A stretch of DNA of 64,000 nt from an uncultured bacterium (GCA_947646655.1 CANSHI010000006.1:2253-66252); one strand, 5' to 3'; positions 7,628-47,298 are shown, numbered from the stretch's first letter. Notes: generated by a model not told the origin, from the letters alone. A program made the numbers and translations.

Positions 7628-8229
7628 ATTACGATAAAGAAATGACGAATTTAATAAACGATCTTACGCACATACCGAGCCTATTGCTTCATTCTTGCTG
7701 TGCACCATGCTCAAGTGCTGTATTAGAAAGACTTATGCCTTATTTTGACATAACTATATTATATTACAATCCTAACATCGAACCGTTTGAAGAATATACT
7801 AGAAGGAAAAAAGAAGAAACAGATCTTATTTCTAAGCTTAAAAGTCCAAATAAACTAACTATTATAGACTATGACTATAATCACGAAGCTTTTGTTAAAC
7901 TGTCACAAAATCATGAGTCTGACAAAGAACGGGGGCCACGCTGTTACTTATGTTATAAAGAAAGATTAAGTTATACATTCAAAAAAGCGAAAGAATTGGG
8001 ATACGAATATTTTGGTACAACTTTATCAGTTAGTCCCTACAAAGTTGCTAACTGGATCAACGAAATCGGTTTAAGTCTCCAAACGGAGGATGTTAAATTC
8101 CTTGTTTCTGATTTTAAAAAACAGAACGGCTATAAACGTAGCATTGAACTATCAAAAAAGTATAATTTATATCGTCAAGATTACTGTGGCTGTATATATT
8201 CTAAAAAAGAAGCAGAAGAATATATTTAA
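7624..8229 (+). CDS. queH: Epoxyqueuosine reductase QueH (DUF208)
   Basis: LLLHSCCAPCS near the N-terminus and a C-terminal DYCGCIYS cysteine motif. Confidence 0.85.
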   Translation: MNYDKEMTNLINDLTHIPSLLLHSCCAPCSSAVLERLMPYFDITILYYNPNIEPFEEYTRRKKEETDLISKLKSPNKLTIIDYDYNHEAFVKLSQNHESDKERGPRCYLCYKERLSYTFKKAKELGYEYFGTTLSVSPYKVANWINEIGLSLQTEDVKFLVSDFKKQNGYKRSIELSKKYNLYRQDYCGCIYSKKEAEEYI

Positions 8230-8342
8230 AAGGGCGTACTTACTTATCACAATTAAAAACACTTTTAACTTGCAATATAATATTACTTGTGATAAACTTG
8301 TTATTGAAGAATATAAAAAGAATATGAAAAGGTGGTTTAATC

Positions 8343-9578
8343 ATGGGTGAAACCTTTAAAGCGTTTATCGCATTTATATCTGAAGATCCAATTATGCTAG
8401 GTCTTTGTATCGCGATTGTCGTACTTATTATAATGTTTATTTTAGTATTAGTTTTAGGAAAGAAAAAAGACAAAAAGCCTGAAGCTGTCGAAAGTACTAA
8501 TGAAGAATTATTGAAAACTAAAATTAATATGGAAGCTCTTAAGAGTACCAGTGAATTTAAACTTGACGAACTAGGTCAAACACCTACTGAGAAAACAGAA
8601 GAAAATGCACCAGTTGTAGAAGAAATTCCTGTTACTACAGAAGAACCTATAAAAGTAGAATTTGAAGACAAAGTTGAAGATACAGTCGCACCAACTATTG
8701 ATACTTTGAGCGAAAGTGAAGAAAAGACTAACTCAGAAATATCTGCATATCCTACTTTTGACAACATTCAGATAACCGAAAATAGAGAAACAAAAGAAGA
8801 AATTTCTGAACCTGTTATTGAAGAGGATCTAAATAATTTAAGTGTTTTAGAATCTGCTGAAATTCCTCTAGAAGGAGAAGAACTTCAAGAAAAAATAGTT
8901 GAGCCTATTAAAGAAGATCGACTAGAAGAAAATAAAGATATCGTGGAGTCTACTATCAATCCGATAGAAGTATCAGAACCTATAGAGACACCAACTTTAG
9001 AAGAAACTACTTTCCCTATCTTTACAGAGACTCCTACTTTAGATATTCCACCTATCGAAGCGGTAGAAATTCCAAGTGAACCTTTACCAACTGATTTATA
9101 TGAAATGCCTACTATCGACATTCCAAACATTACTTTAGATGATAATATTTTAAGTGTAACTCCACAAGAAGAAGAAATTACACCACCAGTTAAAGAAAAT
9201 ACTCCTATTGAGGAAACTACACAAATTGTTGAAGAAGAAAACGTTACTATAGAAAAACCTTACGAAGATGTTATCGAACCACTATCTGAACCTACAGTAC
9301 AGTTGGAAGAGCCAAAACCAATTGAAGATATACCAGTAGAACCAATTGAACTACCAGAAATGACTTCGGAAGAAGACGTAGAATTACCTGATTACAGTGA
9401 TATTTATTCTATCGATGATATCGAACTTCCAAACATCATTTTCGATGACCTAAACAATTCTCTAAATGGACCTGAAAAGCATGAAGACAACGAAGAAGAT
9501 TTAGACTTACCAAAATTGAATACTAATACTTCTCAGACACTTAATAATCTTCAAGGAGAATCGTTTAAAATTGACTAA
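8343..9578 (+). CDS. Membrane-anchored, highly acidic E/P/T/I-rich low-complexity protein
   Basis: AAGGTGG RBS and an N-terminal TM helix (IMLGLCIAIVVLIIMFILVLVLG). The remainder is E/P/T/I-rich with short repeats (ELP, IPxEP). Confidence 0.7.
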   Translation: MGETFKAFIAFISEDPIMLGLCIAIVVLIIMFILVLVLGKKKDKKPEAVESTNEELLKTKINMEALKSTSEFKLDELGQTPTEKTEENAPVVEEIPVTTEEPIKVEFEDKVEDTVAPTIDTLSESEEKTNSEISAYPTFDNIQITENRETKEEISEPVIEEDLNNLSVLESAEIPLEGEELQEKIVEPIKEDRLEENKDIVESTINPIEVSEPIETPTLEETTFPIFTETPTLDIPPIEAVEIPSEPLPTDLYEMPTIDIPNITLDDNILSVTPQEEEITPPVKENTPIEETTQIVEEENVTIEKPYEDVIEPLSEPTVQLEEPKPIEDIPVEPIELPEMTSEEDVELPDYSDIYSIDDIELPNIIFDDLNNSLNGPEKHEDNEEDLDLPKLNTNTSQTLNNLQGESFKID

Positions 9579-13696: not shown

Positions 13697-15469
13697 ATGT
13701 TTAAAAACGAACTAAGCCTGGTGCCACATCTACCTGGCTCTTACCAAATGTACGATAAAAATGACATCGTTATATATGTTGGAAAAGCTAAAGATTTAAA
13801 AAACCGCCTCTCGTCATACTTTACAGGTAGAGTAACAGGCAAAACAAAAAAACTAGTAAGCGAAATTGCTTATTTTAAATATATTGTCACATCGACAGAA
13901 AATGAAGCATTTATCTTAGAGCTTAACTTGATCAAAAAATATGATCCCAAATACAACATCTTACTCCGCGATGATAAAAGTTATCCATACATTGAATACA
14001 TTAGAAAACCATATCCAAGACTTAAAATAGTTCGTTACTTAAACGTCAAAAAAGCAAAAGATAGAAGACTCTTCGGTCCTTTTCCCAACCAATACGCTGC
14101 AAGAAGAATTGTTAACCTCATTAATAGACTTTATCCTCTAAAAAAATGCGAAGGAAACCCAAAAGAAGTCTGTCTTTACTATCATATAGGAGAGTGTCTA
14201 GGATTTTGTTCAAAAGAAATAAATAACTCTAAAATAGACGAAATGGAAGCCGAAATAATTTCTTTTCTAAGAGGAAATGACACTATCATCAAAGATAAAA
14301 TCATGGAACGAATCAATTATCATAGTGAGCAGATGAATTATGAAGTGGCCCTAGATTTAAAAAGAGAATTAGATTATATCACTATTATTTTAGCAAGACA
14401 AAAAGTCGAACTAACAGACTTAGTAGATAGAGACATCATCAACTACTATATCGAAAATGGTTACATAAGTATCAATTTCTTCTTTATAAGACATGGCAAA
14501 CTGCTCGGCAATAAAAACGAGATTTTTCCTATCATGGACGAATATATTGATGAAATAGAATACTTTATAGGCTTATTTTACACTAAAAATGAACTTCCTG
14601 CCGAAATAATTATAAATGATGAACTCGATGCTGAGGTTCTTAGTGAAGCATTAAATACTAAAGCGATACATGTTCAAAAAGGAAAAAAGAAAAATCTTTT
14701 AGAGCTTGCCAAAACTAATGCTAAAATTTCCTTACAAAACCAATTTGAAACGATCCACAGAGATGAGCAGAAAACTATTGAAGCCAATGAAGAACTACGT
14801 AAACTTCTAAACTTAGACAAACTTTATAGAATTGACATCTTCGACAATTCAAACCTTTTTGGAGAATATTCTGTCAGTGGTATGGTAGTATTTAAAGACG
14901 GAAAACCTTCTAAAAATGATTATCGTAAATTTAAAATTAGTTTAGAAAAAAACGATGACTATAATACTATGAAAGAAGTTCTTTATAGGCGTTACTATCG
15001 TATGCTAATGGAAAAGACAGAATTTCCCGACCTAATTATTTTAGATGGTGGAGAGAACCAAATTAATGCCGCCAAAGAAATTATGGAAATGCTTAATTTA
15101 AATATCAAATTAGTAGGACTTAAAAAAAACAATAAACACCGCACAGACGACTTAGTAGATGAAAATCAAGAAATTATTCCTATAGACAAGACTTCAAACC
15201 TTTTTCACTATCTAACTAGAATCCAAGATGAAGTACACCGCTTCACTATCAATTATCATAGACAAATTAGAAGTAAAGGGTCCATTCAAAGTGTTCTCGA
15301 TAACATTGAAGGCCTTGGCGAAAAAAGAAGAAAAGCCCTTATTAAAAAATTTGGCAGTTTAAAGGGTATCAAAGCTGCAACACAGGAAGAATTGGCTGAC
15401 ATCATACCAGAAAACATCGCTATAAGATTAAAAGAATATTTAAGTTCTTTAGACGAGATAAAAAAATAA
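13697..15469 (+). CDS. uvrC: Excinuclease ABC subunit C
   Basis: GIY-YIG N-terminus (PGSYQMYDKNDIVIYVGKAKDLKNR), full length, C-terminal HhH region. Confidence 0.95.
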   Translation: MFKNELSLVPHLPGSYQMYDKNDIVIYVGKAKDLKNRLSSYFTGRVTGKTKKLVSEIAYFKYIVTSTENEAFILELNLIKKYDPKYNILLRDDKSYPYIEYIRKPYPRLKIVRYLNVKKAKDRRLFGPFPNQYAARRIVNLINRLYPLKKCEGNPKEVCLYYHIGECLGFCSKEINNSKIDEMEAEIISFLRGNDTIIKDKIMERINYHSEQMNYEVALDLKRELDYITIILARQKVELTDLVDRDIINYYIENGYISINFFFIRHGKLLGNKNEIFPIMDEYIDEIEYFIGLFYTKNELPAEIIINDELDAEVLSEALNTKAIHVQKGKKKNLLELAKTNAKISLQNQFETIHRDEQKTIEANEELRKLLNLDKLYRIDIFDNSNLFGEYSVSGMVVFKDGKPSKNDYRKFKISLEKNDDYNTMKEVLYRRYYRMLMEKTEFPDLIILDGGENQINAAKEIMEMLNLNIKLVGLKKNNKHRTDDLVDENQEIIPIDKTSNLFHYLTRIQDEVHRFTINYHRQIRSKGSIQSVLDNIEGLGEKRRKALIKKFGSLKGIKAATQEELADIIPENIAIRLKEYLSSLDEIKK

Positions 15470-15528
15470 AAGTAAAACCACGCATTTAAATTGGTTTACT
15501 TTTTTCTTTATTATAAAACAATCTTAAT

Positions 15529-16467
15529 TTACAATATTTCTTCATCAAAACCCAATTTTTTTCTTGCAACATATATAGGTCTATTTTTTGTTTCGATAAA
15601 CATCTTAGCAATATACTCTCCTAGAATACCGATTGCAATAAGCTGTATTCCTCCTAAAAACAAAGTTAAACTCGCCAAAGTCGCAAAACCTGGAGTATCG
15701 ACACCACGTATTAAAGTTTTCACTATTAAGTAAACGAGATAAATGAAACCTCCTAAAGAAGACAAAGTACCAAAAAAGGTTGCTAGTTTTAAAGGCTTAA
15801 CAGAAAAACCGACTACACCGTTTATTGCATATTTAAAAGAGGACTTTAAGTTAAATTTAGTTTTTCCAGCCTTACGCTTTCCGACTTTATACTCCATTGA
15901 CTTTGTATTGAATCCGACCCAACTAAATATACCTTTTGAAAACCTATTTTTCTCAGGCAAATTCAATATAGCTTCTTTAACTGTTGATCTAAACATTCTA
16001 AAATCGCTCGCATCTTCGATAAACTTTGTATCGCTTAAAAAGTTAATAAACTTATAAAACAACTTTCCACCTACACGTTTAAAAATATTCCCATTTCTCT
16101 TTTGTATAGTCATAACTACTTGATCATAATCAGGATGATGATCTAAAAATGTCATCATATTTTCCAAATAAGTTGGATTTTGTTCCATGTCTGCATCTAT
16201 TATAGCTGTATATTCGCCTGCTGCATGCTCCATACCAGCATATATTGCCGCATCTTTTCCAAAATTTCTACTAAAACTGATAACTTTAACATGCTCCTTG
16301 TCATTTCGATATACAGACTCCAGTACCTTATAAGTTTTATCCTTGCTTCCATCATCGACAAAAACTACTTCAAAATTGATGTCAGAAAATATTGCTCGAA
16401 TATTATTATAAATACTATCTATATTAGCTTCCTCATTACACGCAGGGATTATTATACTTAACTTCAT
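15529..16467 (-). CDS. GT2 glycosyltransferase of the polyprenyl-phosphate sugar synthase type (GtrB/CsbB-like)
   Basis: IIIPACNEE, VDDGSKDKT and DADMEQ motifs plus two C-terminal TM helices. AGGAGG RBS. Confidence 0.9.
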   Translation of the reverse strand: MKLSIIIPACNEEANIDSIYNNIRAIFSDINFEVVFVDDGSKDKTYKVLESVYRNDKEHVKVISFSRNFGKDAAIYAGMEHAAGEYTAIIDADMEQNPTYLENMMTFLDHHPDYDQVVMTIQKRNGNIFKRVGGKLFYKFINFLSDTKFIEDASDFRMFRSTVKEAILNLPEKNRFSKGIFSWVGFNTKSMEYKVGKRKAGKTKFNLKSSFKYAINGVVGFSVKPLKLATFFGTLSSLGGFIYLVYLIVKTLIRGVDTPGFATLASLTLFLGGIQLIAIGILGEYIAKMFIETKNRPIYVARKKLGFDEEIL

Positions 16468-24412: not shown

Positions 24413-24609
24413 TAGATCTTCTTTTTTTTGTCAAAAAAAATATTATTGGTAAAATTTGGAAAGAAAAAATAAGAATTTTATTAAATCACTCGCATAAAAT
24501 GATAATAGAGAGAATATTTTTATTAAAGGTATTGAAATGTCTTCGATTTTTTATTAATATATATATAGTATAATAAAAAGTTTTTTATGTGGTAAGGAGT
24601 AAAAATTTT

Positions 24610-27600
24610 ATGAGAAAAAAAGTTGTAGGAATAATTTCGGTATTATTGCTAAATTTACTATGTGTACAAACAGTTTTAGCGGCATCTAGTTTAAATGCCG
24701 ATTTGAATGCAGATAAGCAAAGTTTAAAGGCAGGCGAACAAATAGAACTCACTCTTGCTTTTAACAATTTTAATGACATTAAAAAAGGTATTAATGCTTA
24801 TATGGGAACATTAGAATATGACACTAATATATTTGAAAATGTTGTTGAAAAAAATTTTTTGTGCTTAAACAATTGGGAACAGTTTAAATTTAATCCCTCT
24901 AATGGTAAGCTTGTGGCGATAAGAAAAGTAGGTACTAAAATAGATGAAAATGTTTTAAAAGTTACTTTGAAAGTTAAAGAAAACATAGGAGCTACAAAAA
25001 CAGAAGTTAAGATTAAAAATATAGTAACTTCAGAAGGAAAAAAAGATATTTTTATAAATACTGCTTCTTCAACTATAAACATAATCGAAGAACAAACTAC
25101 AATTCCAACTAAACCAGTTAGCCCATCTAAGCCTTCTAAACCTAACTACAATACTTCAGGAAACAAACCAAATTCATCCGGAGGAAATAAAGTAGAATCT
25201 AACACCTCACCTAATCCAACTGATGAAAATGAAGATGATGAGACAAATAGTGAAGACGATGATGATGATGATCGATTAGATAAAGAAGAATCGAAAGAAC
25301 AATCTTCTAATAAAAATGAATCGACAAATAAAAATGATGATATAGAAGAAAATCCGATTAAAACTACATCTAGTAAATATATATGGGTTCTCATAATAAT
25401 ACTAATCCAAATAATTCTTATAATTTATGTATACTTTAGACATAAAGATAAAAACTCAAATAAACATCTTTCAGTTATGTTTTTAACGATTATATTAGCC
25501 GAATTTATTGGTACAACATGTGCCTTTGGAATCAGTTTTGCAGCTAAAGGTGATTTAAACGGCGACTCTGTTGTCGACTATGCTGATGCCAGTTTATTAG
25601 AACTGCACTTAGTAGATCTTAAAAAATTAGAAAAAGGAAATTATGAAAAAGCTGATATGAATCTAGATGGACAGCTTACTGTTACCGATTTAACTCTTCT
25701 AATTCAAAAGCTAGAAAACAATCTCGATTATGAAGTAACCATCATAAACTTCGAGCCTTCAAATAAACATCCTAACAAAAATCAAGATTTAGATATTAAA
25801 TTTGGCAGTGATGTCAGTTTTGGAGCAATTATTAAGAAGATAATAATCGATGGAAAAGAATACGATGTTACGAAAGAAGCAAATACTTCTGACTATACAA
25901 TTAGAGTTAACTCAGGAAGTGAAGCAGGTCTAAAAAGCTACCATGTAACAGAAGTTATTTTAGACAACAACAAAACAATAAAAGTAGATTATTCTTTCAT
26001 CTTAGATGTCTTAAAAGATAGTCCACACATAACCAATTATCGAGTAGAAGAAAACAAAGACGAATCGAAATTGATATTATTGTTCGACATCGTTGATGAT
26101 GAAGACAGTTTGACTTTAGCAACATTAGACGTTTACAATATAGACCAAGAAATAGTCACACAAACCTCATTAGCTAAAGGTCAAAATAGAATAGAAGTTT
26201 CTGTTGAAGAAACTAAAGAATACAAAGCCTACATTAAATTAGAATACAACTTAAGTGAAGATGAAAATAATACTGAAAGTATGGGTATTGAAAGTTATGA
26301 AAAAGACTTACAGCTAATAATCGATTACAACTTCAATATTTCCAATATAAAAACATATAAAGAAAATAAAGAACAAACTATTTTTGCTATGGGCGACCAA
26401 GTAAAGATTGGCTTCGAAAGTACTAACAGTACAATACACATACCTGCCTTCGTAAAAGTTAATGGAAAAGAATACGAAGTAACAGAAGAGAATGGAAAAT
26501 ACTTTGCAACACTCGACCCATTAAACACTTTAGGAGACTACCAAATCTTAGTCGAAGAAGTCAAATTAGCAAACGGTAAACAATTTGAACTTACAGAGTC
26601 TAATACCATTAATATAACTTGTCAAAAAAGAAAACCAGTTGTCGAAGATTTATCGATTACAGAGTTCACTGAAACAAACGACTTAAAAGTTATGTTCAAT
26701 TTAAACGACGAAGATAGAGCAGTCTCAGACATAACGATTCTTTTACTAGACGTCGATGGAAGTGAAATAGACCAAGTCAAACTATCTCGCGACGAAGTTA
26801 AAGACGATGGAACAGTAAACAAGTTCTTAAAAACTAAGATGACTACTAAATACAAAGTAAAAGTAATCATGAGTTATAATGTAACACAAAACGAAGACGA
26901 AAAAGTAGTCGATGAACTTGCCGCTCTAGAGGAATTTAATGCTGATCCAAGAGCAATAATTAAAAATATTACACCTAACAAAGACTATGTCGAAAAAGGT
27001 GGAGTTCTAAAACTCACATATGAATTAGAGACAAATAAAACAGAAGATGTAACTAGAATACTTGTCAACAACATCAACTGTATAGCCGTCAAACTAGACA
27101 ATGGAAATTATGAAGTTACACTCAATGTCGGCAGTAACAGTGGCTTATATGCCCTAACAACAACACGTCTAACATACAGCGATTCATCCGTTGCAACTAC
27201 TGACAAAACTGTAAATGTTGAAGTACTAAAAAGTAAACCTACTGTCAAAAACTTTACTCAAACTGACGACGTACAAAATCGCGAAGTCACATTAAACTTT
27301 GATGTCGATGATCCTGATAACAGTTTCCTAAACGGAAAAGCAGTTCTTACACTTGATGGTACAAGTACTGAAAGGGAAATCTCTAAAGGACACAATTCTG
27401 TAACTTTCCCAGTTGAAGCTTCAAGAAAATATACATTTGAAGTTAAAGTATCATATGATCTCGATGAACATGCCCTAACTAACAAACCAGAAGAAGATAA
27501 TCGTGTGACTGACGAGACGATTGATACTAAAGAAATTGAACTAATCGCTGATTATGAACTTAACATTTCTAACATTAAGACTTACAACGAGAAAGGCGAA

Positions 27601-30600
27601 ACAAAATACTTTAGCAAATCAGAACCGATTAAAATTAGCTTTGAAAGTACAAATATTACAACTTTCAAACCAGTAAGTGTAGTCATCAATGGAAATACAT
27701 ACCAATTAACAAACACAGATGACACTTACTACTTAACGATTGACAGTCACCGAACTTCCGGTGTTAAAACTGCTAAAATCGAAAAGATAATTTTAAATAA
27801 CTCTAAAGAATTATTTATAACAGAAAACAACGAAATAAAAGTTACAGTACTAAAGGACAAGCCAGTTGTAGAACAATTTGGTTACAAAGAAAACATAGAT
27901 GGAACAATCTCAGCTAACTTCAAAGTAATCGATGAAGAAGATACCATCACTGGTGGAAAAGTACTCATCATCAAAAATGGAGAAACCATCAAAGAACAAG
28001 ACATAGTTAAAAATGATAACACGATCAACTTCCAGCCTGAAGAAAACCAAAATTATTTAGTCAAAGTTTTAGCCGACTATGACTTAGACATGAATGTTTT
28101 AGAAGAAGATGCAAACGAATACACAAATGTTACACTTCTAGAAGCTGACATAACTCTAGGTGCACGTCGCTTTGAAATGAAAGACATCATTAGAACTTCT
28201 ATTTATAAAAATACCGAAAATGGAGTAGTGGAAATCAACACTCTTAGTGAAGCAGATTTAGCTAATCCAAGTGACTACATCGCTAAAGTTTACATGAGAG
28301 AAATGCCAACTTTCTATACAACAGTGACAGGGCATAAAGTAGAAGACGGAAAATTAAAACTAACTTTAGCTTATGACAACGTCGTACAATATTCTCATGA
28401 TAGCAAACAAAATAAATTAGAAATTGAATTTGGCGAACTAAATAATGGTGTTGCTCAAAATATCACATTAGAAGGACTTATCAAAGAAATAGAAGCTAAT
28501 CCATCTGGTTCATTCACACTTACTCGTGACTATGATGCATCTATCATAACGACAAATGAAGCAACATTAATCGCTGCTACATTTACAGGAACATTAAATG
28601 GAAATGGTCATAAAATTTACAATTTAACAAAACCAATGTTCGATACGATAGAATCAGCAACAATTGAAAACATCACTTTTGACACTCCAAAAGTATTTGG
28701 TACAACCAGCCGAGGAACTATTGCCAACAATGCGATTAATTCGACGATTAGAAACATCCACTTAAAAGATCTAACACTTATATCAGGTACAAGTAGAGTT
28801 GGGGGATTAATCGGAGAAGGTTCTTCTACTACCATCGAGCAAATAGAAGTTTCTAACTTTACAATAACGACTGCGGGACACATCAGAATAGCTTCTATCG
28901 TCGGAAACATGACAGGCGGAAGCATTAAAAACTGTGTAATCGATGGAGAATTAAAATCGACACAAAATAAAGATGGAAACGGAATTTCTGGTATTTTAGG
29001 TGCTACTGAAGGAACAGAAATCGTTACAATCGAAAACTGTATTACAAAAGTTAATTATTCAAGTAACGTAAGTCCTCGCTTAAACGGTGATATCGTAGGA
29101 CTTGCATTGAATAGTAATACTTCACTAAAAAACAATGTAAGTTTATCAACTGGATTAAACTTCTACCATGTACATGGTTATTCAATTCATTCTACATCGT
29201 CAAATAACTTTGAAATTATTGAGTCAGAACTAACTTCTAATGCTTCTGATAAAGTTACCCAAATATCTAAAAATGATATTAACGGAGATTTCTTTAAAAA
29301 CACAGCTCACTTTGATGAAACGATTTGGGACTTAAGTGATTCGTCTTATGACAACGTTCCTGAACTTATTTCATTAAAAGAAAACGTAGAGGAAGAAACA
29401 ACTGATAAACCAGAAAACAACAAATTATATATTCCAGATTACACAAGAATCCAAAAAGTTAATGGCTTCACAAACTCTAAAGATATCATATATCACAACT
29501 TAAATAAATTGATGCCTTACTATGATGCCAAATACTTAGTCGAAGATGGATTAAAAATTCCTAATACGAGTGAACTAAACGAAAAAATAATTAAACATAT
29601 TTTACCGTATGCTAATGACTCAATGGTCACATACTTGACTAGAGAAAACTATAATAGCATTTCGAAAATAAAAGTCATCTATGACGACCGAACTGCAAAA
29701 GAGTATAATGTCACATTTAAGGAATTTAAGCAAAATATTGCCATTTACGATATAGAAGGTTTAGACATCGAATACGCATATAGTAACTATACTATAAAAG
29801 AAGATGCTTCTATCGTAGGTACTATCAAAGAATATATTGATAACCTCGATTATACAGCAACACTCGATAGTTTAACAAAGGCCGCGGACAGCAGATTATA
29901 TAAAGATAACTTTAACGAAAAAGTAAAAGCTAAATCTAATGAAATCGCGCTTAAACTATTACAAAATGATACAGACAGTATTTTAACTATCGATAATAGC
30001 ATATTAAATAACAGAATTAAACAACAACTTATTGACAGTGGAAGACTAAACAAAATTATTTATGCATATAACTACTATGATAAGTGGTATGACTTCGAAA
30101 TCGGAGGCTCAAAAGTTACAGACATCTTAATGTTTGAAGGAAAAATATATAAAAATTCGATGACTATCGACAATATGACAAACGAAGTCCTTACAGGAAG
30201 TATGGCCACGAATACGACAAGTGCATTCTATGCAAATAACATTAAAAAATATACTGAAGCTGCAAACTTAGGATTATTCCTCGATGAAATTATTAAAAAC
30301 ATCGGAGGATATGAAGACATCAATGACTGGTTCACAGAGCATTTTACAAAAATAGGATTATTATCTGAAATACCAGTTGAAAATCACCCTGAAGTTAAAT
30401 ATCGTGCATGGGATAGATTAAAAGCATATCAAAACTTTATCTTGCCATTATCTACTTTACCAAAAGATGCTGGATACATCATTTCAGGACCAGCTCAACT
30501 TCAAGTAGGTGCACAAAGAGTATATACAAAAGACCCATCAACTGCACAAGCTACACTTAAAAACACTATTAAAAATCATAGTGCTCTAGTAAAAAGACAA

Positions 30601-39434: not shown

Positions 39435-41324
39435 ATGAATAAAAAACAAAAGATAAGTATAGGATTTATGTTGGTGGCCATGATACTAATGCTTACATTT
39501 GGTGCATATTCATTTTTTATAACAAATGGACAAAACAATATCGATATGGAAACAAACATTAAAGCAGGAGAAATGTCATTGACATTCAGTGATGGAAACA
39601 ATGGAATAAACAAGTCTCTACAGTTTGGTGAAACTATAACAAAGTCTTTTACAATAGCAAATACAGGAAATGTCAGTAGTTCTTTAAGCCTACACTGGAC
39701 AAAATTAATTAATAAATACTTAAATGGCAGTCTCACTTATAATTTAACATGCAAAAACGAACATGAAGATAAAGAGTCAGAAATTATTCTCTTGAGTAAT
39801 GTGCCGACCTCTTATGAGCCATTAGAACAAATATTAGCGGGGGAAATATCAGTAGAAGCTAATTCCACAACGGATTGTAACTTAAATATAAAGTTAAATA
39901 ATACTGAATTTGATCAGACAAATGATATAGAAGCAATATTTCAAACAAACTTTAAAGCCGATCAACCACTTAAATACTTATATTATCTTTTACAAATTGA
40001 TCCCAATGGAGGTACTTGGAATGAGTTCACATCTACTCAAGAATACAGATTACTTAACAACGAAACTTTTAATATTCCCTCGCCTACAAGAATCGGTTAC
40101 ACTTTCGATGGATGGGAAAAATCTGGAAACTCTATTATAGACGGAACAACTTTAACTATGGGTATTGGTAACACAACATTACAAGCAAAATGGATAAAAA
40201 ACAAATATAAAGTGACAATCGATAATGGAATAGACCAACCAATAGAAGAAATTTGTGAATTTGGAAATACATTAAACCTGACTCAACCACTAAAAGAAGG
40301 TTACACATTTACGGGGTGGAGTACAACTGGGGGATCTATAGAAAATAATATTTTATCAATAAGTGAACCAAAAGATATCCGCGTTACAGCAAACTGGATA
40401 ATTAATCGTTACAAATACATCGTTTATCATAATAAAATGAACTTAAATGGTGAAGGCTATACTTTAGTAGAGGCTGACACTGAAGAAAAAGAAGCAGAAT
40501 TTAACTCAATAGTAACTCCTAGTGTGAAAACCTATCAAGGCTTTAAATTACCTCAAACAAAAGATCTAACAATTAAAGCTGAAAATACTTATCCGCCAAT
40601 ATTAAACAAAATAGAATATAATTACGAAAGAAATAAATATAACTTAACCGTTAATTTAAATGGTGGTGCCTCAGAAACAACTGGTGGAGAAATGTATTAT
40701 GAATCTAGTAAAAATTTAGGAATACCAACTAAAAAAGGATACAACTTTACTCACTGGACAACTACTTCAGGAACCATCACAGACAATATTTTCAAAATGG
40801 ATTCTAAAGATGCTACCATAACAGCTAACTTTACCCCCAAAGTCTATACAATAACGTTTAATCCTAATGGAGGAACGACACCTGAAGCAAGCAAACAAGT
40901 GTTATACGATTCAACATATGGATCTCTTCCTATACCAACTTACACTGGATACGAATTTTTAGGATGGTATACAAATAGCACTGATGGTAATCTAATTACG
41001 TCTGATCTTGTTGTCAATCTAGAAAATGATCAAACTCTTTTTGCCAAATGGAAAAGAAAACAAGTTACTATAACTTTAGATTCTCAATATTTCTTCTTTG
41101 ACACTAAAAATACTATATCAACCAAAACAAAAGTAGTCACAGTTGGCGAACCTTATGGAGAGCTAGAAATGCCTAATTCCTATGGTAACAAGCCTAATGG
41201 GCAGATTTGCTCTTTTAAAAGCTGGCAAATAAATGGCAGCGAAATAACAGATAAAACAATAGTAACAATAACATCAGACCATACATTAATCCCAAGAGAA
41301 GGAAGTTGTATCGCAACTGGTTAA
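39435..41324 (+). CDS. Secreted protein: TasA/camelysin-like N-terminal domain plus Listeria-Bacteroides (Flg_new) repeats
   Basis: Signal region ends FGAYSFF (SipW-type look), then AGEMSLTF and FGETITKSFTIANTGNV as in TasA. Repeats: GYTFDGWEKSG, GYTFTGWSTTGG, GYNFTHWTTTSG, GYEFLGWYTNS. Confidence 0.8.
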   Translation: MNKKQKISIGFMLVAMILMLTFGAYSFFITNGQNNIDMETNIKAGEMSLTFSDGNNGINKSLQFGETITKSFTIANTGNVSSSLSLHWTKLINKYLNGSLTYNLTCKNEHEDKESEIILLSNVPTSYEPLEQILAGEISVEANSTTDCNLNIKLNNTEFDQTNDIEAIFQTNFKADQPLKYLYYLLQIDPNGGTWNEFTSTQEYRLLNNETFNIPSPTRIGYTFDGWEKSGNSIIDGTTLTMGIGNTTLQAKWIKNKYKVTIDNGIDQPIEEICEFGNTLNLTQPLKEGYTFTGWSTTGGSIENNILSISEPKDIRVTANWIINRYKYIVYHNKMNLNGEGYTLVEADTEEKEAEFNSIVTPSVKTYQGFKLPQTKDLTIKAENTYPPILNKIEYNYERNKYNLTVNLNGGASETTGGEMYYESSKNLGIPTKKGYNFTHWTTTSGTITDNIFKMDSKDATITANFTPKVYTITFNPNGGTTPEASKQVLYDSTYGSLPIPTYTGYEFLGWYTNSTDGNLITSDLVVNLENDQTLFAKWKRKQVTITLDSQYFFFDTKNTISTKTKVVTVGEPYGELEMPNSYGNKPNGQICSFKSWQINGSEITDKTIVTITSDHTLIPREGSCIATG

Positions 41325-41388: not shown

Positions 41389-41493
41389 ATATGAATAAAT
41401 GAATTAGAGTTTACGTCAAATTTTGACAATATTTTCCCCATACCTATGTAAATACGACTCTTTATGCTATAATTATTGAGAATAGGAGGACAA

Positions 41494-43503
41494 ATGAAAA
41501 AAATTCTTACTATATTATTAATAATTATATCGATATTCATATTCGATCAAAACGTATCAGCATTTACTTATAAAAGAGGAATTGTTACTAGCAAATACAC
41601 CATAAAAACTGCACCCTCATCGAGTGCCTCTGCAGTAAAAAACGATACTGGAGGAAGTGCCAGCTTATCATATCCTGAACCTGTAGAAGTTTTAGGGGAA
41701 AGTGGTAATTTTTATCAAATAAAATTTTGTAAAGGAGGTTTTTTCTACACTGGCTACATCGACAAAAGCAAAATAAATGTCTATACATACGAAACAGATG
41801 ATGCTTATGAAAATTCTCTTAAAAACCAAGGTTTCCCTGCCGACTATGCAAGAAAATTAGCTATACTTCATGCCATGCATCCAAACTGGTCATTCACACC
41901 TTCCTATACAGGTAGAACTACTGGAGGAATGGATTTCTACACTGCCGTAAATGGAGAAGCTAGCTCAGTAGGAAGAAATGCCATCAATGGTTCCAATGAA
42001 TCTCTTCGATCAACTGAAGACGGTGCTTACAAAAATGGAACATGGATACCTGTTGCTGGTAATGGATGGTATGCAGCTAGTCGTCAAACTATCGCTTTCT
42101 TTATGGATCCTCGTAACTTTTTAGACGAAGGAGAAGTATTTATGTTTGAGAATCTAGGCTTCAATCCAGCAACGCAAACAAAAGATATTGTAAACAAAGT
42201 TTTGGCAGGAACTTTCATGAATAATCCATTTGAATGTGGTGCCAATGCAGTCTCATGTGCAACAGGAACACACTACTATGCTGATACATTTATGACTGCT
42301 GGAACAGATAAAAAAGTTAGTCCCGTTCACTTAGCGAGTAGAGTTAAACAAGAGCAAGGATCTAACGGTTCAATTTTATCTCTAGGTAAAGGTTATAATG
42401 GAAAATATGTTGGATACTATAATTTCTTTAATGTAGGAGCTTCTGGAAAAACCGATGCCGAAGTCATCACTAATGGCTTTGAATGGGCAGTCAAAAAAAG
42501 CTGGAACAACCAACACAAATCGATTTATGACGGTTCTGATTTAATCGCGAACAATTATGTCAAAAGAGGACAATCAAACCTTTACTATCAAAAGTTTAAT
42601 ACAATCGTACCAGATTATTATGGTAACCAATACATGCAAAATGTTAAAGCTGCTTTCTCAGAAGGAAACAGTAATTACGAATCTTACTTTAAATCATTTT
42701 CAAAAATAGAAGAATGGGAAAAATCAACTTACGATTTCCTTATTCCTATTTATCAAAACATGCCTTCCTACACGACTCTCGATGTCAGTGGAAATGCCGA
42801 TACGACTTTAAAAAGCCTTGCCGTTGAAGGATGTAATCTTAATCCTGAATTTCAGTCAAGTGCAACATATTATGAATGCTTTGCATCAAAATCGACTTCA
42901 GAAATAAATATTCAAGCAGCTACGACTAATGCAAATGCCAAACTAGAAAATCCTGGCAAAGTAACCATTACAAATGATGAACAAACCGTTGAAGTAAAAG
43001 TTACAGCAATCAATGGTTCGACTGGTATTTATACGATCGTTGTAAAAAGAATAGACACCGATGGTGTAAGTCCTGAAAAAATATTAAATAGCATTGGTAT
43101 TAAAACTAACAACAACTTAATATCTAATATAGAAATGAACTCAGACGTTTCAAATATCATAAGCAACATTAAAAACCACTATCATTTTGCCCAAGTTACT
43201 GTCAAAGATGCCAATGGCAAACAGATTACTGAAGGCAAAGTCAAAACGGGACAAAGTGTTACAATCAATAATGCTGGACTAACGAACACATATAAAATAG
43301 TACTTTATGGAGATCCTGTAGGAGACGGAAATATCGATATACTAGATCTACTTATGGTTCAAAAACACATACTAAGATCAAAAGTCTTAACTGGAGAGTA
43401 TTTTACAGCAGCTGACATAAATCATGATGGCAAAGTTGACATTCTAGATTTACTATTAGTCCAAAAGCATCTTTTAAATAAATACCAAATAAGTCAAGAA
43501 TAA
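41494..43503 (+). CDS. Secreted peptidoglycan hydrolase (glucosaminidase/GH73-like) with SH3b, cadherin-like beta-sandwich and C-terminal dockerin
   Basis: ATG 41494 follows AGGAGGA. Signal peptide, SH3b-like segment (GESGNFYQIKF), VSPVHLASRVKQEQG ... YYNFFNVGASG ... LYYQKFN, cadherin-like TLKSLAVEGCNLNPEF, and dockerin GDGNIDILDLLMVQKHIL / DINHDGKVDILDLLLVQKHLL. Confidence 0.85.
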   Translation: MKKILTILLIIISIFIFDQNVSAFTYKRGIVTSKYTIKTAPSSSASAVKNDTGGSASLSYPEPVEVLGESGNFYQIKFCKGGFFYTGYIDKSKINVYTYETDDAYENSLKNQGFPADYARKLAILHAMHPNWSFTPSYTGRTTGGMDFYTAVNGEASSVGRNAINGSNESLRSTEDGAYKNGTWIPVAGNGWYAASRQTIAFFMDPRNFLDEGEVFMFENLGFNPATQTKDIVNKVLAGTFMNNPFECGANAVSCATGTHYYADTFMTAGTDKKVSPVHLASRVKQEQGSNGSILSLGKGYNGKYVGYYNFFNVGASGKTDAEVITNGFEWAVKKSWNNQHKSIYDGSDLIANNYVKRGQSNLYYQKFNTIVPDYYGNQYMQNVKAAFSEGNSNYESYFKSFSKIEEWEKSTYDFLIPIYQNMPSYTTLDVSGNADTTLKSLAVEGCNLNPEFQSSATYYECFASKSTSEINIQAATTNANAKLENPGKVTITNDEQTVEVKVTAINGSTGIYTIVVKRIDTDGVSPEKILNSIGIKTNNNLISNIEMNSDVSNIISNIKNHYHFAQVTVKDANGKQITEGKVKTGQSVTINNAGLTNTYKIVLYGDPVGDGNIDILDLLMVQKHILRSKVLTGEYFTAADINHDGKVDILDLLLVQKHLLNKYQISQE

Positions 43504-43516
43504 AAGGAGTAAATAA

Positions 43517-44926
43517 ATGAATAAAATTAGACATATTATTGTTGTTCTATTTACAACATTCGCATTTTTTACAAGTGTAAATGCCGCTAGTGGTTCTATT
43601 ACAGCATCCACAGGCACAAAAGTAGCAACAGTCGGCTCGACTTTTAAAGTCACTGTTAAACTAAATTGCTCAGAAGCTTTAGGGGCTTGGGATTTTGGAA
43701 TCTCTTATGACAGTTCCAACATCTCACTCGTATCGGGAGATACCCACGTTGTCGACTCAACTAAAGATGGAACATCACGCAGTAAAACTTATACATATGT
43801 TTTTAAAGCGATTAAATCGGGAACTGCTAATATACGTATAACGGGTGCTGCCATGACTGGATTCGATGAAATGAGAACATTTACACCTTCGACATCAGGT
43901 ACATCCGTAACTGTTAAGACAAAAGCAGAAGTTGAAGCGAGTTACAGTAAAGATAACAACTTAAAAAGCTTAAGTGTTGAAGGATATGAAATATCACCAG
44001 CATTTAATAAAGATACTACAGAGTACTCAGTCTCTGTTCCTGATACAGTAACATCCATAAAAATAAATGCTTCTCCAAATGATCAAACCGCTAGAGTAAC
44101 AAATACAGGAGATATCGACATATCAGAGGGAGTTAACAAAATAGAACTAGTTGTGACTGCCCAAAATGGAAGTACAAAGACTTACACTTTGATTGTCAAC
44201 GTTCAAGATTTAAATCCGATCACTGTAACGAACGGTGGTATCGATTACACAGTAGTTAAAAAAGCTGATCTTCTAACTGAACCAGTGGGACATACTCCTG
44301 TTACTATAACAATAAATGGTGAAGAAGTCCCCGCATTTAAAAGTGAACTTACTAACTTCACAATTGTCGGTTTAAAAGACGCCGACGGCAAAATTTCTCT
44401 CTTCATATATGATGAGGAAACGAACACATATACTCCATACATCGAGCTTAAAGGATCAAGCCTAATACTTTTTCCAAAAGAATTGCCAGAAGTATTAACT
44501 GGTTTTACAAAGACCACTCTCGACATCAATGAAATACCATGTGAAGTATTAACAAACGACATAGACCAAAGCCTCATTGTCATATACGCCTTAAATATCG
44601 AAAATGGTGAGGAAGGATATTACATATATGACAAAAATACTAATGGCTTCGTGACTTACACAAAAAGCTTATTCGACAAATTCATAGAAGAAAATAAAGA
44701 ACTAAAACTATATTTTCTAGCCTCAATAAGTGGAGCAGGTGTACTACTCTTAATATCAATTTATCTCGCTTCAAAAAAGGCTAAGCTTAAACGTCTTTTA
44801 AAAAAGTTTTCTAAAATAGAAGAAAATAAAGATGAAATAATAGAAAACGACGATTTAATTGAAGAAACTGTATCAGAAGAAATAGTCATTCAAAATCGAC
44901 CTAAAAAGAAAAAAAAGCGTAAATAA
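43517..44926 (+). CDS. Membrane-anchored cohesin protein (signal peptide, cohesin-like domain, cadherin-like beta-sandwich, C-terminal TM anchor with basic tail)
   Basis: VGSTFKVTVKLNCSEALGAWDFGISYDSSNISLVSGD; NLKSLSVEGYEISPAFNKDTTEYSVSV ... TAQNGSTKTYTLIV; TM helix YFLASISGAGVLLLISIYLA followed by a K-rich tail. Confidence 0.82.
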   Translation: MNKIRHIIVVLFTTFAFFTSVNAASGSITASTGTKVATVGSTFKVTVKLNCSEALGAWDFGISYDSSNISLVSGDTHVVDSTKDGTSRSKTYTYVFKAIKSGTANIRITGAAMTGFDEMRTFTPSTSGTSVTVKTKAEVEASYSKDNNLKSLSVEGYEISPAFNKDTTEYSVSVPDTVTSIKINASPNDQTARVTNTGDIDISEGVNKIELVVTAQNGSTKTYTLIVNVQDLNPITVTNGGIDYTVVKKADLLTEPVGHTPVTITINGEEVPAFKSELTNFTIVGLKDADGKISLFIYDEETNTYTPYIELKGSSLILFPKELPEVLTGFTKTTLDINEIPCEVLTNDIDQSLIVIYALNIENGEEGYYIYDKNTNGFVTYTKSLFDKFIEENKELKLYFLASISGAGVLLLISIYLASKKAKLKRLLKKFSKIEENKDEIIENDDLIEETVSEEIVIQNRPKKKKKRK

Positions 44927-44955
44927 AATCGGCATTCCAAATGCCGTTTTTTTTA
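44926..44955. terminator. Bidirectional terminator between convergent genes
   Basis: CGGCATT / AATGCCG stem flanked by an A-run and a T-run. Confidence 0.75.
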
Positions 44956-47298
44956 TGCAGACTGTTTATTTTTCATTCTTAAATACATTTTTTTCACTTT
45001 AGTTGCCGGTCCCAAATTATTAACACTTTCAGGATTTTCGATTATACTTATTCTTAGTCCAATTTTTCGTATAACAGACATAAAAGCTGATAGATAATGC
45101 GTAGCATCTTTCAAATATTCTTCTTGAAGTGAAGGATTACTTAAATTCATGCCACATCTAATAAATAATACGAATTTATCTCTTTCATCTAAAAGACCTA
45201 TGGCTTCATCGACGATACTTTTTTTCTTATCTTGAAAATAATCATACACAGTTTTTATTTTTGATCTCATATTATCGAATCTTAAAGTTTTCAATAATCG
45301 GCCTAATCTCGGTAACACTACATGATCTAATTTATTCTGTTCTAGAGTAGATAGTGATTTAGAAAAAAATGCGTTTAAATTATCTCCATATCTTTTTTTG
45401 AGTAATAAGAAACAATCATTAGGTAATTGACTAGCAGCCCAAACTATTTCTAAAAGACTATAGTCAGGAAATATTTCTGTTAAAGTTAAAATATTTCTTT
45501 TCCTTCCTTTATACATTTGCTCAAGTAATCTCTGTATTCGAGGAATCAAAGAATCTTTCATAAAATTACTTAAACTTGAATCCCAATATCTTTGGTAAGG
45601 ATTTTCTAAATTAAACCCATATTTCAAAAACAATACCATTCTATCATAATCTGATAATATATTTAAAACAGAATCCACTTGCTCTTTGGAATATTCATAA
45701 AATAAATCATAAATAGTAATAATATTTCTAGGATAATTTAATTTATATTTGTACAACTGATCAGTCCTTAAAGCACTGCCCAATTTTATTAAAGACTGCA
45801 ACAACATAGGCATACTATCTTCTTTAAAATTTAAACATAAGTCATCGTCTAAAGAAGACATGATCACATCCTGATCAAATGCATCTATAAAAGACATCAC
45901 TCTGTTAATATCTTTTTCACTTAAACTAAAAAACATTTCTTTAAAAATATTGAATAGACTGTTTTTGCTATAAATAAGCTCTATAAACTTTTTGATCCAT
46001 AATCTTACTTCGCTCAAAATATCCACATTATAACAACTAAAAATTTTATCCAGCATTTTATTCCATTCATCCATAGACACATACTTACTTAAATTAAATC
46101 CGATAAACTCGAAAATAAGCTTTTGAATTTTAAATGGGAAAAACGAAATAGCAAATTCGACAACATCTTGAGATTCATAAAAATACTCATAAAACTTTTT
46201 ATAATTTTCATTTAATGCGCCATTTCTTTCTTTAATACTATTGTCGAGAAAAGATAGTAGTTTAGAATGAATTGACAAATCACGTGCTGTTAGCTTCTTC
46301 TTCCGAAACAAATTATTTGAACCTAGTTTATAAATTTTAAAAAAGCTTACTAAATCATCTTGGTTTAATCTACTAACTGCATCTATAATATCTTCACTAC
46401 CATAGGGCAACTCATTAAAAATTGATGTATAATGCAACTCATCGATATCGTAATCTCCATAAAGTAATCCAGATGTTACAGGATCATATAATCCACAAGT
46501 TCTCCCACTCAATCCATCGAAATATAAATTAAATATACCTGTTTTATTCAACTTAATTTTTCTACATTGATATCTATTTATATAATTTTCTATTTTTTTG
46601 TATAATTTTTCATCCAAATATATAGCATTTAAACGACCGATATTTACAATTTCACTAGTTTCACATGGATCTTGATTAGCGTGTTCAGCATTAAATTCTC
46701 TAAACATATTTTTTACGAATCCTCTATCTATTTGGGATGGTAATTCATAATCCAATACTTCCACTAACATATAAGAGAGCGCATATTTTATCATTAAAAA
46801 TATTTCAAGAGAAGAGTAAGGTACTCTTTCAAATATTTCACTTAAAGTCATCTGCTCATATTCGAATAAACCTAATCTCATTTTAGTTACCAATTGGACG
46901 ATCTCAGGCAATTTATTAAACTTTTCTAAAAAGTTAGAAAATAAATCTCTATAATCACTTTGTTCACTCACATCATTTTCATGATCCACCAACATTGTAT
47001 TGACTACAACTTCTTCTTCGGTATGCAAAGAAGAAAAAGCACATTCTTTAGACAAAATATTTTTAATTTTTCTTCGCAAAGAAATTTTTACCGATTGATA
47101 AGCATAAGTAGAAAATTCAATCCCTTTTGTAATATCGAAAAGATCTACTGCATGTGTGAGAATGACGACTCCTTCTTGAAACAGATCATTTTTTATAAAA
47201 TAAAAGTCCGAATAACAGTCATGTATTACTTGCATTACTAATCCATAATTAGCATTTCTCGAGCATTCATATCCCCAGCCCAAAACTTTAAAAAACAT
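44953..47298 (-). CDS. Giant sigma-70-like protein: sigma regions 2 and 4 followed by about 580 aa of degenerate region-4-like repeats (main reading frame)
   Basis: DLFQEGVVILTHAVDLFDITKGIEFSTYAYQSVKISLRRKI (region 2). LPEIVQLVTKMRLGLFEYEQMTLSEIFERV (region 4). Repeats such as LSDYDRMVLFLKYGFNLENP and LDERDKFVLFIRCGMNLSNP. Confidence 0.75.
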   Translation of the reverse strand: MFFKVLGWGYECSRNANYGLVMQVIHDCYSDFYFIKNDLFQEGVVILTHAVDLFDITKGIEFSTYAYQSVKISLRRKIKNILSKECAFSSLHTEEEVVVNTMLVDHENDVSEQSDYRDLFSNFLEKFNKLPEIVQLVTKMRLGLFEYEQMTLSEIFERVPYSSLEIFLMIKYALSYMLVEVLDYELPSQIDRGFVKNMFREFNAEHANQDPCETSEIVNIGRLNAIYLDEKLYKKIENYINRYQCRKIKLNKTGIFNLYFDGLSGRTCGLYDPVTSGLLYGDYDIDELHYTSIFNELPYGSEDIIDAVSRLNQDDLVSFFKIYKLGSNNLFRKKKLTARDLSIHSKLLSFLDNSIKERNGALNENYKKFYEYFYESQDVVEFAISFFPFKIQKLIFEFIGFNLSKYVSMDEWNKMLDKIFSCYNVDILSEVRLWIKKFIELIYSKNSLFNIFKEMFFSLSEKDINRVMSFIDAFDQDVIMSSLDDDLCLNFKEDSMPMLLQSLIKLGSALRTDQLYKYKLNYPRNIITIYDLFYEYSKEQVDSVLNILSDYDRMVLFLKYGFNLENPYQRYWDSSLSNFMKDSLIPRIQRLLEQMYKGRKRNILTLTEIFPDYSLLEIVWAASQLPNDCFLLLKKRYGDNLNAFFSKSLSTLEQNKLDHVVLPRLGRLLKTLRFDNMRSKIKTVYDYFQDKKKSIVDEAIGLLDERDKFVLFIRCGMNLSNPSLQEEYLKDATHYLSAFMSVIRKIGLRISIIENPESVNNLGPATKVKKMYLRMKNKQSA

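Follow-up and report, generated by a model that had tools for sequence, protein, structure and literature searches.

A giant M26-family metalloprotease of an uncultured bacterium with a cohesin and a dockerin on either side of two hydrophobic segments

The streptococcal M26 metalloproteases (IgA1 protease/ZmpA, ZmpB, ZmpC and ZmpD; MEROPS family M26, structure 6xja) and the surface complexes built from cohesin and dockerin modules are the described systems closest to the protein reported here, which is encoded by a 2,874-codon gene in a 64,000-nucleotide stretch of DNA from an uncultured bacterium (the window). The streptococcal ZmpB sequences recovered in our homologue search start with a YSIRK signal peptide, followed by about 55 amino acids, an LPYTG motif, a hydrophobic segment, the sequence KKGRRE and a second hydrophobic segment ending in GTFA/FEN. 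For the streptococcal Zmps, a second signal-peptidase cleavage has been proposed at the end of the second hydrophobic segment (PMC3518915), and pneumococcal ZmpB and IgA1 protease were found by proteomics to be depleted in a sortase A mutant (PMC13604702). The LPXTG motif lies N-terminal of the enzyme; cleavage by sortase should therefore detach the enzyme, and its retention is a puzzle. Bender and Weiser reportedly proposed, in 2006, a non-covalent association for the streptococcal enzyme.

Assembly by cohesin and dockerin modules is known for separate gene products; in the window protein, anchor and client are in one chain, probably exported as one. Amy4 of Ruminococcus bromii contains one cohesin and one dockerin, and its cohesin has been shown experimentally to bind its own dockerin (PMC4611034); as this enzyme is documented, the principle of a self-binding cohesin-dockerin enzyme is not new. 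In the 'mucinolysomes' of Limousia, dockerin-bearing peptidases sit on scaffoldins (PMC12997984); they involve no M26 enzyme, nor do their modules flank a transmembrane hairpin or an internal signal peptide. In full-text literature searches, no paper was found that brings together a dockerin or cohesin and M26 or an IgA protease. This agrees with the initial annotation of the gene, which knew of no M26 enzyme with both partners, although an enzyme with both does exist in Amy4 (PMC4611034).

The gene, for the precursor of a cassette-bearing M26 metalloprotease, extends from 24610 to 33234 on the plus strand, like all features below unless stated otherwise; coordinates are counted from the first letter of the window and amino acid numbers are those of the window protein. 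Translation gives 2,874 stop-free codons plus a stop, i.e. the single uninterrupted frame described at the outset. The ribosome-binding site AAGGAG (24594-24599), read from the sequence, is 10 nucleotides 5' of the ATG at 24610, and the equivalent methionine (MKKK..) is the start in homologues too. The first 371 residues form a conserved cassette consisting of signal peptide, cohesin, a disordered linker of about 95 amino acids, a first transmembrane segment (TM1), a basic loop, a second hydrophobic segment (TM2) and the dockerin. A repeat region of about 800 amino acids and then the protease are located downstream of it. The signal peptide, residues 1-24 (24610-24681), reads MRKKVVGIISVLLLNLLCVQTVLA followed by AS and was located by its sequence and a hydrophobicity scan; its Lys-rich start leads into a hydrophobic core, and the residues at -3 and -1 of the predicted cleavage site, VLA/AS, are small.

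Pfam scans were run on the whole protein and, separately, on pieces of it, both against curated cut-offs. The whole-protein scan lists Peptidase_M26_N (135.7 bits, in four stretches) and Dockerin_1 (34 bits) and misses the cohesin and Peptidase_M26_C, both of which exceed their cut-offs once the pieces are scanned alone. Significant matches to the Peptidase_M26, Cohesin and Dockerin profiles were thus all obtained, and nothing on that side speaks against the domain assignments made in the initial annotation.

In the protease half, the M26 N-terminal region (residues ~1154-1590; 28069-29379) contains FTGTLNGNGHKIYNL and GGLIG-type repeats. It matches PF05342 with 95-136 bits, the scan of pieces giving Peptidase_M26_N 95 bits at residues ~1154-1385, and aligns to the N-terminal domain of the IgA1 protease. 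The catalytic region (residues ~1709-2323; 29734-31578) is identified by PF07580, by similarity to NCBIfam models and by alignment to structures in the Protein Data Bank (PDB). Scanned alone, residues 1598-2407 match PF07580 (Peptidase_M26_C) with 84.3 bits (cut-off 22) over profile positions 1-661 of 792, and this family is also listed in the precomputed annotation of homologues. The alignment of the protease half with pneumococcal IgA1 protease (6xja/6xjb/7jgj) covers about 960 amino acids (E=4e-35) and places the zinc site H2098-E-Y-E-H2102 ... E2120 (30901-30969), recognised from the sequence, under the HEMTH...E of 6xjb_A; the glutamate is kept in 19 relatives. Two further M26_N-like modules with FxGxLDGNGHxI motifs are located at residues ~2424-2874 (31879-33231; PF05342, 75.6 bits in three stretches), so that both the HEXXH region and the two C-terminal segments read earlier from the sequence are recovered by profile or by alignment to solved structures. 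The NCBIfam models give 177 bits for ZmpB, 133 for ZmpA, 114 for ZmpD and 108 for ZmpC, far under their 3000-bit equivalog cut-offs; the protein is therefore a member of the M26 family and no orthologue of a named Zmp. The GLUG-type motifs noted before stand as part of M26_N and not as domains on their own, as the separate Pfam Glug model reaches 11.5 bits on the whole protein, under its cut-off of 20.5. Judging by family and habitat, our best guess for the substrate is a host protein with O-glycans, for instance mucin or IgA.

Between cassette and protease, residues 372-1185 (25723-28164) form four tandem units of about 200 amino acids with two sub-modules each, as determined with BLASTP and MAFFT; this is how the four alternating pairs of modules of about 100 amino acids first noticed here turned out. 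Pairwise BLASTP comparison gave E-values from 1e-5 to 1e-25 after the region had been cut into four; uncut, it matches itself as identity only. No Pfam family was found in this region when its pieces were scanned, and it is a probable stalk.

The cohesin module comprises residues 27-160 (24688-25089). On residues 26-164 alone, PF00963 gives 40.2 bits (cut-off 24.1; E=4.8e-10) over profile positions 5-139 of 139. AlphaFold2 folds residues 27-158 into a beta-sandwich with a predicted local distance difference test score (pLDDT) above 93. When this model was compared with the PDB using Foldseek, the approximately 30 best matches were cohesins. The closest structural match is 2vo8, the cohesin of Clostridium perfringens GH33 (template modelling score 0.83), while 2jh2 (0.74-0.76), 4dh2, 4uyp and 1aoh were also among the matches; profile score and structure prediction thus bear out the cohesin-like beta-sandwich that had been proposed. 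The linker, residues 161-255 (25090-25374), is P/S/T-rich and then D/E-rich on direct reading, as annotated, and predicted to be disordered (pLDDT below 50). It ends with IKTTS, which is aligned under the LPKTG/LPQTG of relatives. An LPXTG sorting signal and a C-terminal anchor were looked for in the window protein and neither was found, in line with the initial annotation. Sortase anchoring of the window protein was rejected: the window lacks a sorting signal of the LPXTG type, the TLxTC motif of sortases and any protein with a C-terminal LPXTG.

A type I dockerin with two calcium-binding loops follows TM2 (residues 313-371; 25546-25722). On residues 313-368, PF00404 (Dockerin_1) gives 43.0 bits (cut-off 22.9) over profile positions 1-56 of 57. 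The calcium loops, DLNGDSVVDYAD and DMNLDGQLTVTD, have the D-x-[ND]-x-D...D pattern and each is followed by a helix. Asp326, Asp349, Asn351, Asp353 and Asp360 are invariant in 30 relatives, and Asp319 is present in at least 90%. In the AlphaFold2 model the dockerin has three helices (residues 324-334, 342-348 and 358-371) with pLDDT values of 91-97; solved dockerins are weak sequence matches to it. The two-loop dockerin of the initial annotation is therefore confirmed by profile score and conserved loop residues.

AlphaFold2 was run on the N-terminal 378 residues with a 30-sequence alignment and gave a predicted template modelling score (pTM) of 0.65, or 0.66 when the signal peptide was removed, although about 80 residues are disordered. 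By our own estimate, independent domains would give about 0.40, and a cohesin, hairpin and dockerin fixed with respect to each other about 0.65. The model therefore sets the cohesin against the dockerin side, which suggests an intramolecular cohesin-dockerin contact in the predicted structure.

The two hydrophobic segments between these modules, both noted in the initial annotation, are present in the hydrophobicity scan and in the AlphaFold2 model. TM1, residues 256-276 (25375-25437), is a putative stop-transfer anchor with a conserved Gln267, delimited by the hydrophobicity scan, an AlphaFold2 helix at residues 256-278 and column statistics. The basic loop RHKDKNSNKH, residues 277-286 (25438-25467), is presumed to be cytoplasmic; its columns 277-285 are K/R-rich in 75 relatives. 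TM2, residues 287-307 (25468-25530), is a putative internal signal peptide on the basis of column statistics and homology to the signal peptide of split-form relatives (see below), and corresponds to a second long AlphaFold2 helix at residues 285-312. Among the 75 relatives, Glu298 and G301-T-T-x-A305-x-A/G307 are conserved after the K/R-rich loop and hydrophobic core; the column of residue 305 contains Ala 37 times, Val 12 times and Ser 9 times, and position 307 is Ala in 35. Relative to the predicted site, position -7 is Gly, and small or aliphatic side chains occupy -3 and -1. TM2 fits the pattern of type I signal peptides, in which a basic N-terminus is followed by a hydrophobic core, a helix breaker and small side chains at -3 and -1. 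It looks like such a peptide, with a site of the form A-x-A/G, and we infer a signal peptidase cut after A305-F-G307; the second signal-peptidase site proposed for the streptococcal Zmps is at the equivalent place. The dockerin starts 6-8 residues after TM2 in the relatives, with Y-[ND]-F-[AS]-x-K-G-E-L-N-G-D, and 6 residues after it in the window protein. An internal translation start ahead of TM2 was also considered and rejected, because Met290 has no upstream Shine-Dalgarno sequence.

In the reading that we prefer, and to which we assign a probability of roughly 55%, the precursor is cut in two, and the freed protease re-docks by its dockerin on the cohesin, which stays anchored in the membrane; topology, cleavage and binding are all inferred. 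The N-terminal signal peptide would export the cohesin, TM1 would stop transfer, leaving the basic loop in the cytoplasm, and TM2 would re-initiate export of the remaining ~2,560 residues. In the key step, signal peptidase I would treat TM2 as an internal signal peptide and cut it after A305-F-G307. The cohesin would then remain on the cell through the TM1-TM2 hairpin, on a P/S/T- and D/E-rich linker spanning the wall, and the released protease would have the dockerin as its new N-terminus. Binding of this dockerin to the cohesin of its own or a neighbouring polypeptide would retain the giant enzyme at the surface non-covalently and with a 1:1 stoichiometry. Some relatives may reach the same end state by sortase cleavage at an LPXTG motif before TM1, and others with two adjacent genes.

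The architecture is widespread, as the search for orthologues proposed with the initial annotation made clear. In a search space of 5.8 billion proteins, about 80 clusters have the M26 plus dockerin architecture, at 25-98% identity and mostly 100% coverage; they are named just 'hypothetical protein' and come from metagenome-assembled genomes (MAGs) of Bacilli or Clostridia. Identity to the nearest relative (P0001) is 98%, with 100% of the length aligned. The cassette is present in about 75 of 79 family clusters and persists at 25-28% identity. A scan of GTDB, with one genome per species and a 6-sequence catalytic alignment as the query, which biased the kept loci toward close M26 relatives, identified a relative in at least 165 species genomes. 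The 80 loci kept are all from uncultured MAGs, labelled Bacilli, Tenericutes, Mollicutes, Clostridia or Erysipelotrichaceae, mostly from mouse catalogues (MGBC, iMGMC, wild mice) or from rabbit ('Lapin').

Among 64 testable species loci, the gene is a single fused open reading frame (ORF) in 29, truncated at a contig end in 7 and split in about 20. The upstream gene of the split form (about 320 amino acids) encodes a signal peptide, a cohesin, a linker, a small module and a dockerin of its own, of a different type; the downstream gene, 0-80 nucleotides away, encodes a signal peptide, the dockerin and the M26 protease. The two genes part precisely between TM1 and TM2, so that the homologue of TM2 serves as the N-terminal signal peptide of the split-form protease, and the N-terminus of the mature protease is the dockerin. 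This protease starts with a Lys-rich N-terminal region and a hydrophobic core of about 18 amino acids, followed by G-V-I-Y-A/V-S-N-F-S-T-K-G-E-L-N-G-D, where the slash marks the site. That the two halves stay adjacent is Rosetta-stone evidence for cohesin and dockerin being partners. Two other features were observed in split-form loci (L001 2526-3695, L001 4983-5939 and L002 5010-5978): a conserved module of about 70 amino acids, KITSEKYKIE..YI..I.P.TTV..F..NV, is located between the cohesin and the adaptor's own dockerin, and in one locus the gene for the cohesin adaptor is closely preceded by two genes for sortases.

Another group of relatives has LPXTG (or IPxTG, LPxAG) directly before TM1 and the basic loop. 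This applies to about 60 of 212 cassette or stand-alone cohesin proteins, including M26 members (P0042-P0061) and proteins with other cargos, and by its sequence the combination of LPXTG, TM1 and basic loop is a complete sorting signal. Sortase must part cohesin from enzyme in these relatives, so the pair can act only in trans. At this position, the clade of the window protein has IKTTS or IKKTT, from which we conclude that the sortase motif has decayed and TM1 has been left as the membrane anchor. The initial annotation had supposed that the streptococcal enzymes are anchored by other means; this is not upheld, as ZmpA, ZmpB and ZmpC share the layout and many relatives keep LPXTG before TM1.

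The cassette is not confined to M26 enzymes. An exhaustive search with a cassette profile returned 343 cluster representatives at E<=1e-30, and in about 90 of the 150 best, as we read the table, the whole cassette is matched in one N-terminal stretch. The cassette or a related cohesin was found with DUF4874 plus DUF4832 (P0174), GH5 cellulase-family (P0205, P0287), Sortilin/BNR (P0201, P0218, P0230), seven Big_2 (P0278) and Amidase_2 plus SH3_3 (P0126) cargos. That unrelated cargos share it indicates an autonomous, portable display module. In some related loci, a second cassette-type gene is present a few kb downstream of the M26 gene (L023 ~8088-8465 and L061 ~14619-15776), which hints at several cassette proteins per genome in some relatives.

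Several observations weigh against cutting and re-docking. Cleavage of TM2 is predicted from motif conservation; the window protein has Gly at -1, where Ala is commoner, and the conserved Glu/Gln in the middle of the membrane is atypical for a plain signal peptide. The AlphaFold2 argument draws on pTM values. In the split form, the cohesin protein lacks a membrane anchor and carries a dockerin of its own, so that strict equivalence of the two arrangements does not hold. The real client of the cohesin could be a 675-amino-acid dockerin protein, also encoded in the window. Finally, the polar residues of TM1 and TM2, Gln267 (25408-25410) and Glu298 (25501-25503) in the window protein, covary. Across 75 relatives, phylogeny being uncontrolled, the pair is Q-E in 22, E-Q in 15 and E-E in 5; both positions are apolar in 21, TM2 alone is polar in 9 and TM1 alone in 0. 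The covariation suggests a direct inter-helix contact between Gln267 and Glu298 and thus a real, stable helical hairpin, which fits an uncleaved anchor equally well.

Such an uncleaved anchor is the alternative that survives best, and we consider it possible, if unlikely. The protein would be an integral membrane protease with two extracellular arms. Its cohesin could bind its dockerin in cis, serving as a lock or helping it to fold, or the modules could bind in trans to a neighbour, giving chains or patches of protease; the idea goes back to the initial annotation. Besides the conserved, covarying polar residues, the AlphaFold2 model speaks for it, since it puts cohesin, hairpin and dockerin in one confident assembly. 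Ruminococcus bromii Amy4 shows that a dockerin can be bound by the cohesin of the same enzyme, and that such an enzyme can form multimers (PMC4611034). The stalk of repeats, about 800 residues long, could take the catalytic part across the wall. However, the bond would be hard to explain in its geometry and purpose, with the dockerin about 5 residues from the membrane and the cohesin on a linker of about 95, and TM2 is built like a signal peptide, with N-terminal, hydrophobic and C-terminal regions. The relatives cut by sortase and the two-protein split forms also imply that the family works with the two modules on separate polypeptides. Of the two possibilities first raised, self-docking has indirect support from split-gene adjacency and pTM; chain formation is less likely than the cut-and-redock scheme.

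It is improbable that the protein is instead a node in a larger, cellulosome-like or mucinolysome-like complex, its dockerin plugging into a separate scaffoldin and its cohesin recruiting other dockerin proteins. One candidate for such a recruit is encoded 8 kb downstream: the secreted protein of 675 amino acids mentioned above (41476-43503), in which the hidden Markov model (HMM) scan found a C-terminal dockerin (PF00404, 56.9 bits) and a weak Cadherin-like domain. Its role as an alternative client of the cohesin is speculative, and its dockerin is of the symmetric DILDLLxVQKH type, clearly different in sequence from that of the protease. The different second dockerin of the split-form adaptors implies further cohesins in those genomes, and dockerin-bearing peptidases are found on scaffoldins in Limousia mucinolysomes (PMC12997984) and in R. 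bromii (PMC4611034). Against this, each cassette has strictly one cohesin and one dockerin in hundreds of clusters and with unrelated cargos, and the gene splits exactly between the modules with the halves remaining adjacent. The HMM scan of the window revealed no multi-cohesin scaffoldin; the sole cohesin in the window is that of the protease itself.

An assembly chimera, chance fusion or chance profile matches, for which the source, apparently a metagenome-type assembly, and the absence of the cohesin from the whole-protein Pfam list could be cited, can practically be dismissed: the full-length architecture is conserved in at least 29 independent species-level MAGs and about 75 protein clusters from different assemblies and sources, all modules are above cut-off when scanned alone, and the cohesin fold is confirmed by the model.

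Five nucleotides past the stop codon of the protease gene, a perfect inverted repeat forms a hairpin with an 11-bp stem (33239-33264, assigned to neither strand). It was picked up in a scan for terminator-like sequences, as a match to the consensus only, and may be a bidirectional terminator. The promoter and terminator scan of the window as a whole gave counts equal to the shuffle expectation in this 30% G+C DNA and is uninformative on promoters. Directly downstream of the protease gene are genes for an extracytoplasmic function (ECF)-type sigma factor (33430-33891) and for a protein of 262 amino acids (33894-34682), which has no Pfam match and is possibly an anti-sigma factor. Regulation of the protease by this sigma factor was considered and dropped, because the two genes are not neighbours of the protease in 82 related loci. 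In these loci none of the flanking genes of the window (PBP, EF-P, HisRS, DUF1307, ECF sigma, the 262-amino-acid ORF, NMT1, LemA and DnaJ) is conserved beside the gene. Further downstream, the gene for the 675-amino-acid protein is flanked by genes for a Listeria-Bacteroides-repeat protein (39435-41324) and a Cadherin-like protein (43517-44926), and the three look like a small surface-protein cluster. They are followed on the minus strand by an ORF of 781 amino acids (44953-47298), which matches Pfam only at its N-terminus, and weakly (Sigma70_r2, 23 bits); a sigma-like domain may here be joined to a large C-terminal part.

Taken by itself, the fusion cassette is conserved and has no published description in the literature searched, and the processing mechanism is plausible. 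The broader proposal, that the cassette is a widespread, previously undescribed and portable 'split-and-redock' display device of uncultured gut Firmicutes, which would also explain the LPXTG-TM-TM arrangement of streptococci, is made more tentatively, at somewhat less than even odds. If confirmed, it would give Gram-positive-type bacteria a new means, compact in genetic terms, of displaying very large enzymes, a monoderm counterpart of self-contained display systems. Because it is modular and found on several enzyme classes, the cassette could be used as a surface-display tag in engineering. If splitting and re-docking is true, it also offers a rationale for the N-terminal LPXTG-TM-TM of streptococcal IgA1 protease and ZmpB, and the cohesin-dockerin relatives provide a testable model in which streptococcal M26 enzymes are retained, non-covalently, by an anchored stub. 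Giant proteases of this kind are common in uncultured bacteria of the mouse and rabbit gut and may act on host mucus or antibodies, which would be relevant to microbiome work in mouse models.

Compared with the known systems, the window protein shares with the streptococcal M26 enzymes M26_N, M26_C and HEXXH...E, giant size, a repeat region between anchor and enzyme, and the succession of signal peptide, short extracellular piece, hydrophobic segment, basic loop and second hydrophobic segment, the last with a putative second signal-peptidase site. It differs from them in that sequence identity is just 22-28%, that it has no LPXTG, G5 domain or YSIRK signal, that its N-terminal piece contains a cohesin and the region right after TM2 a dockerin, that it has two extra C-terminal M26_N-like modules and that its active site reads HEYEH. 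With Amy4 it has in common that both modules are on one polypeptide of an extracellular enzyme. Amy4, however, is a GH13 amylase with a C-terminal dockerin, and no transmembrane hairpin or internal signal peptide separates its modules. It presumably forms multimers and is attached by way of the sortase-anchored Sca2, instead of being split into anchor and enzyme. The non-covalent surface display proposed here resembles that of cellulosome-like scaffoldins, the Limousia mucinolysome and the cohesin (X82)-dockerin toxin complexes of C. perfringens, and the split-form relatives, with a cohesin plus an own dockerin, resemble a classical monovalent adaptor. In scaffoldin systems, anchor and enzyme are the products of separate genes, multivalent scaffoldins are frequent and the usual place of the dockerin is the C-terminus; the gene in the window, in contrast, encodes a monovalent anchor and its client in one chain, with the dockerin at the would-be N-terminus of the mature enzyme.

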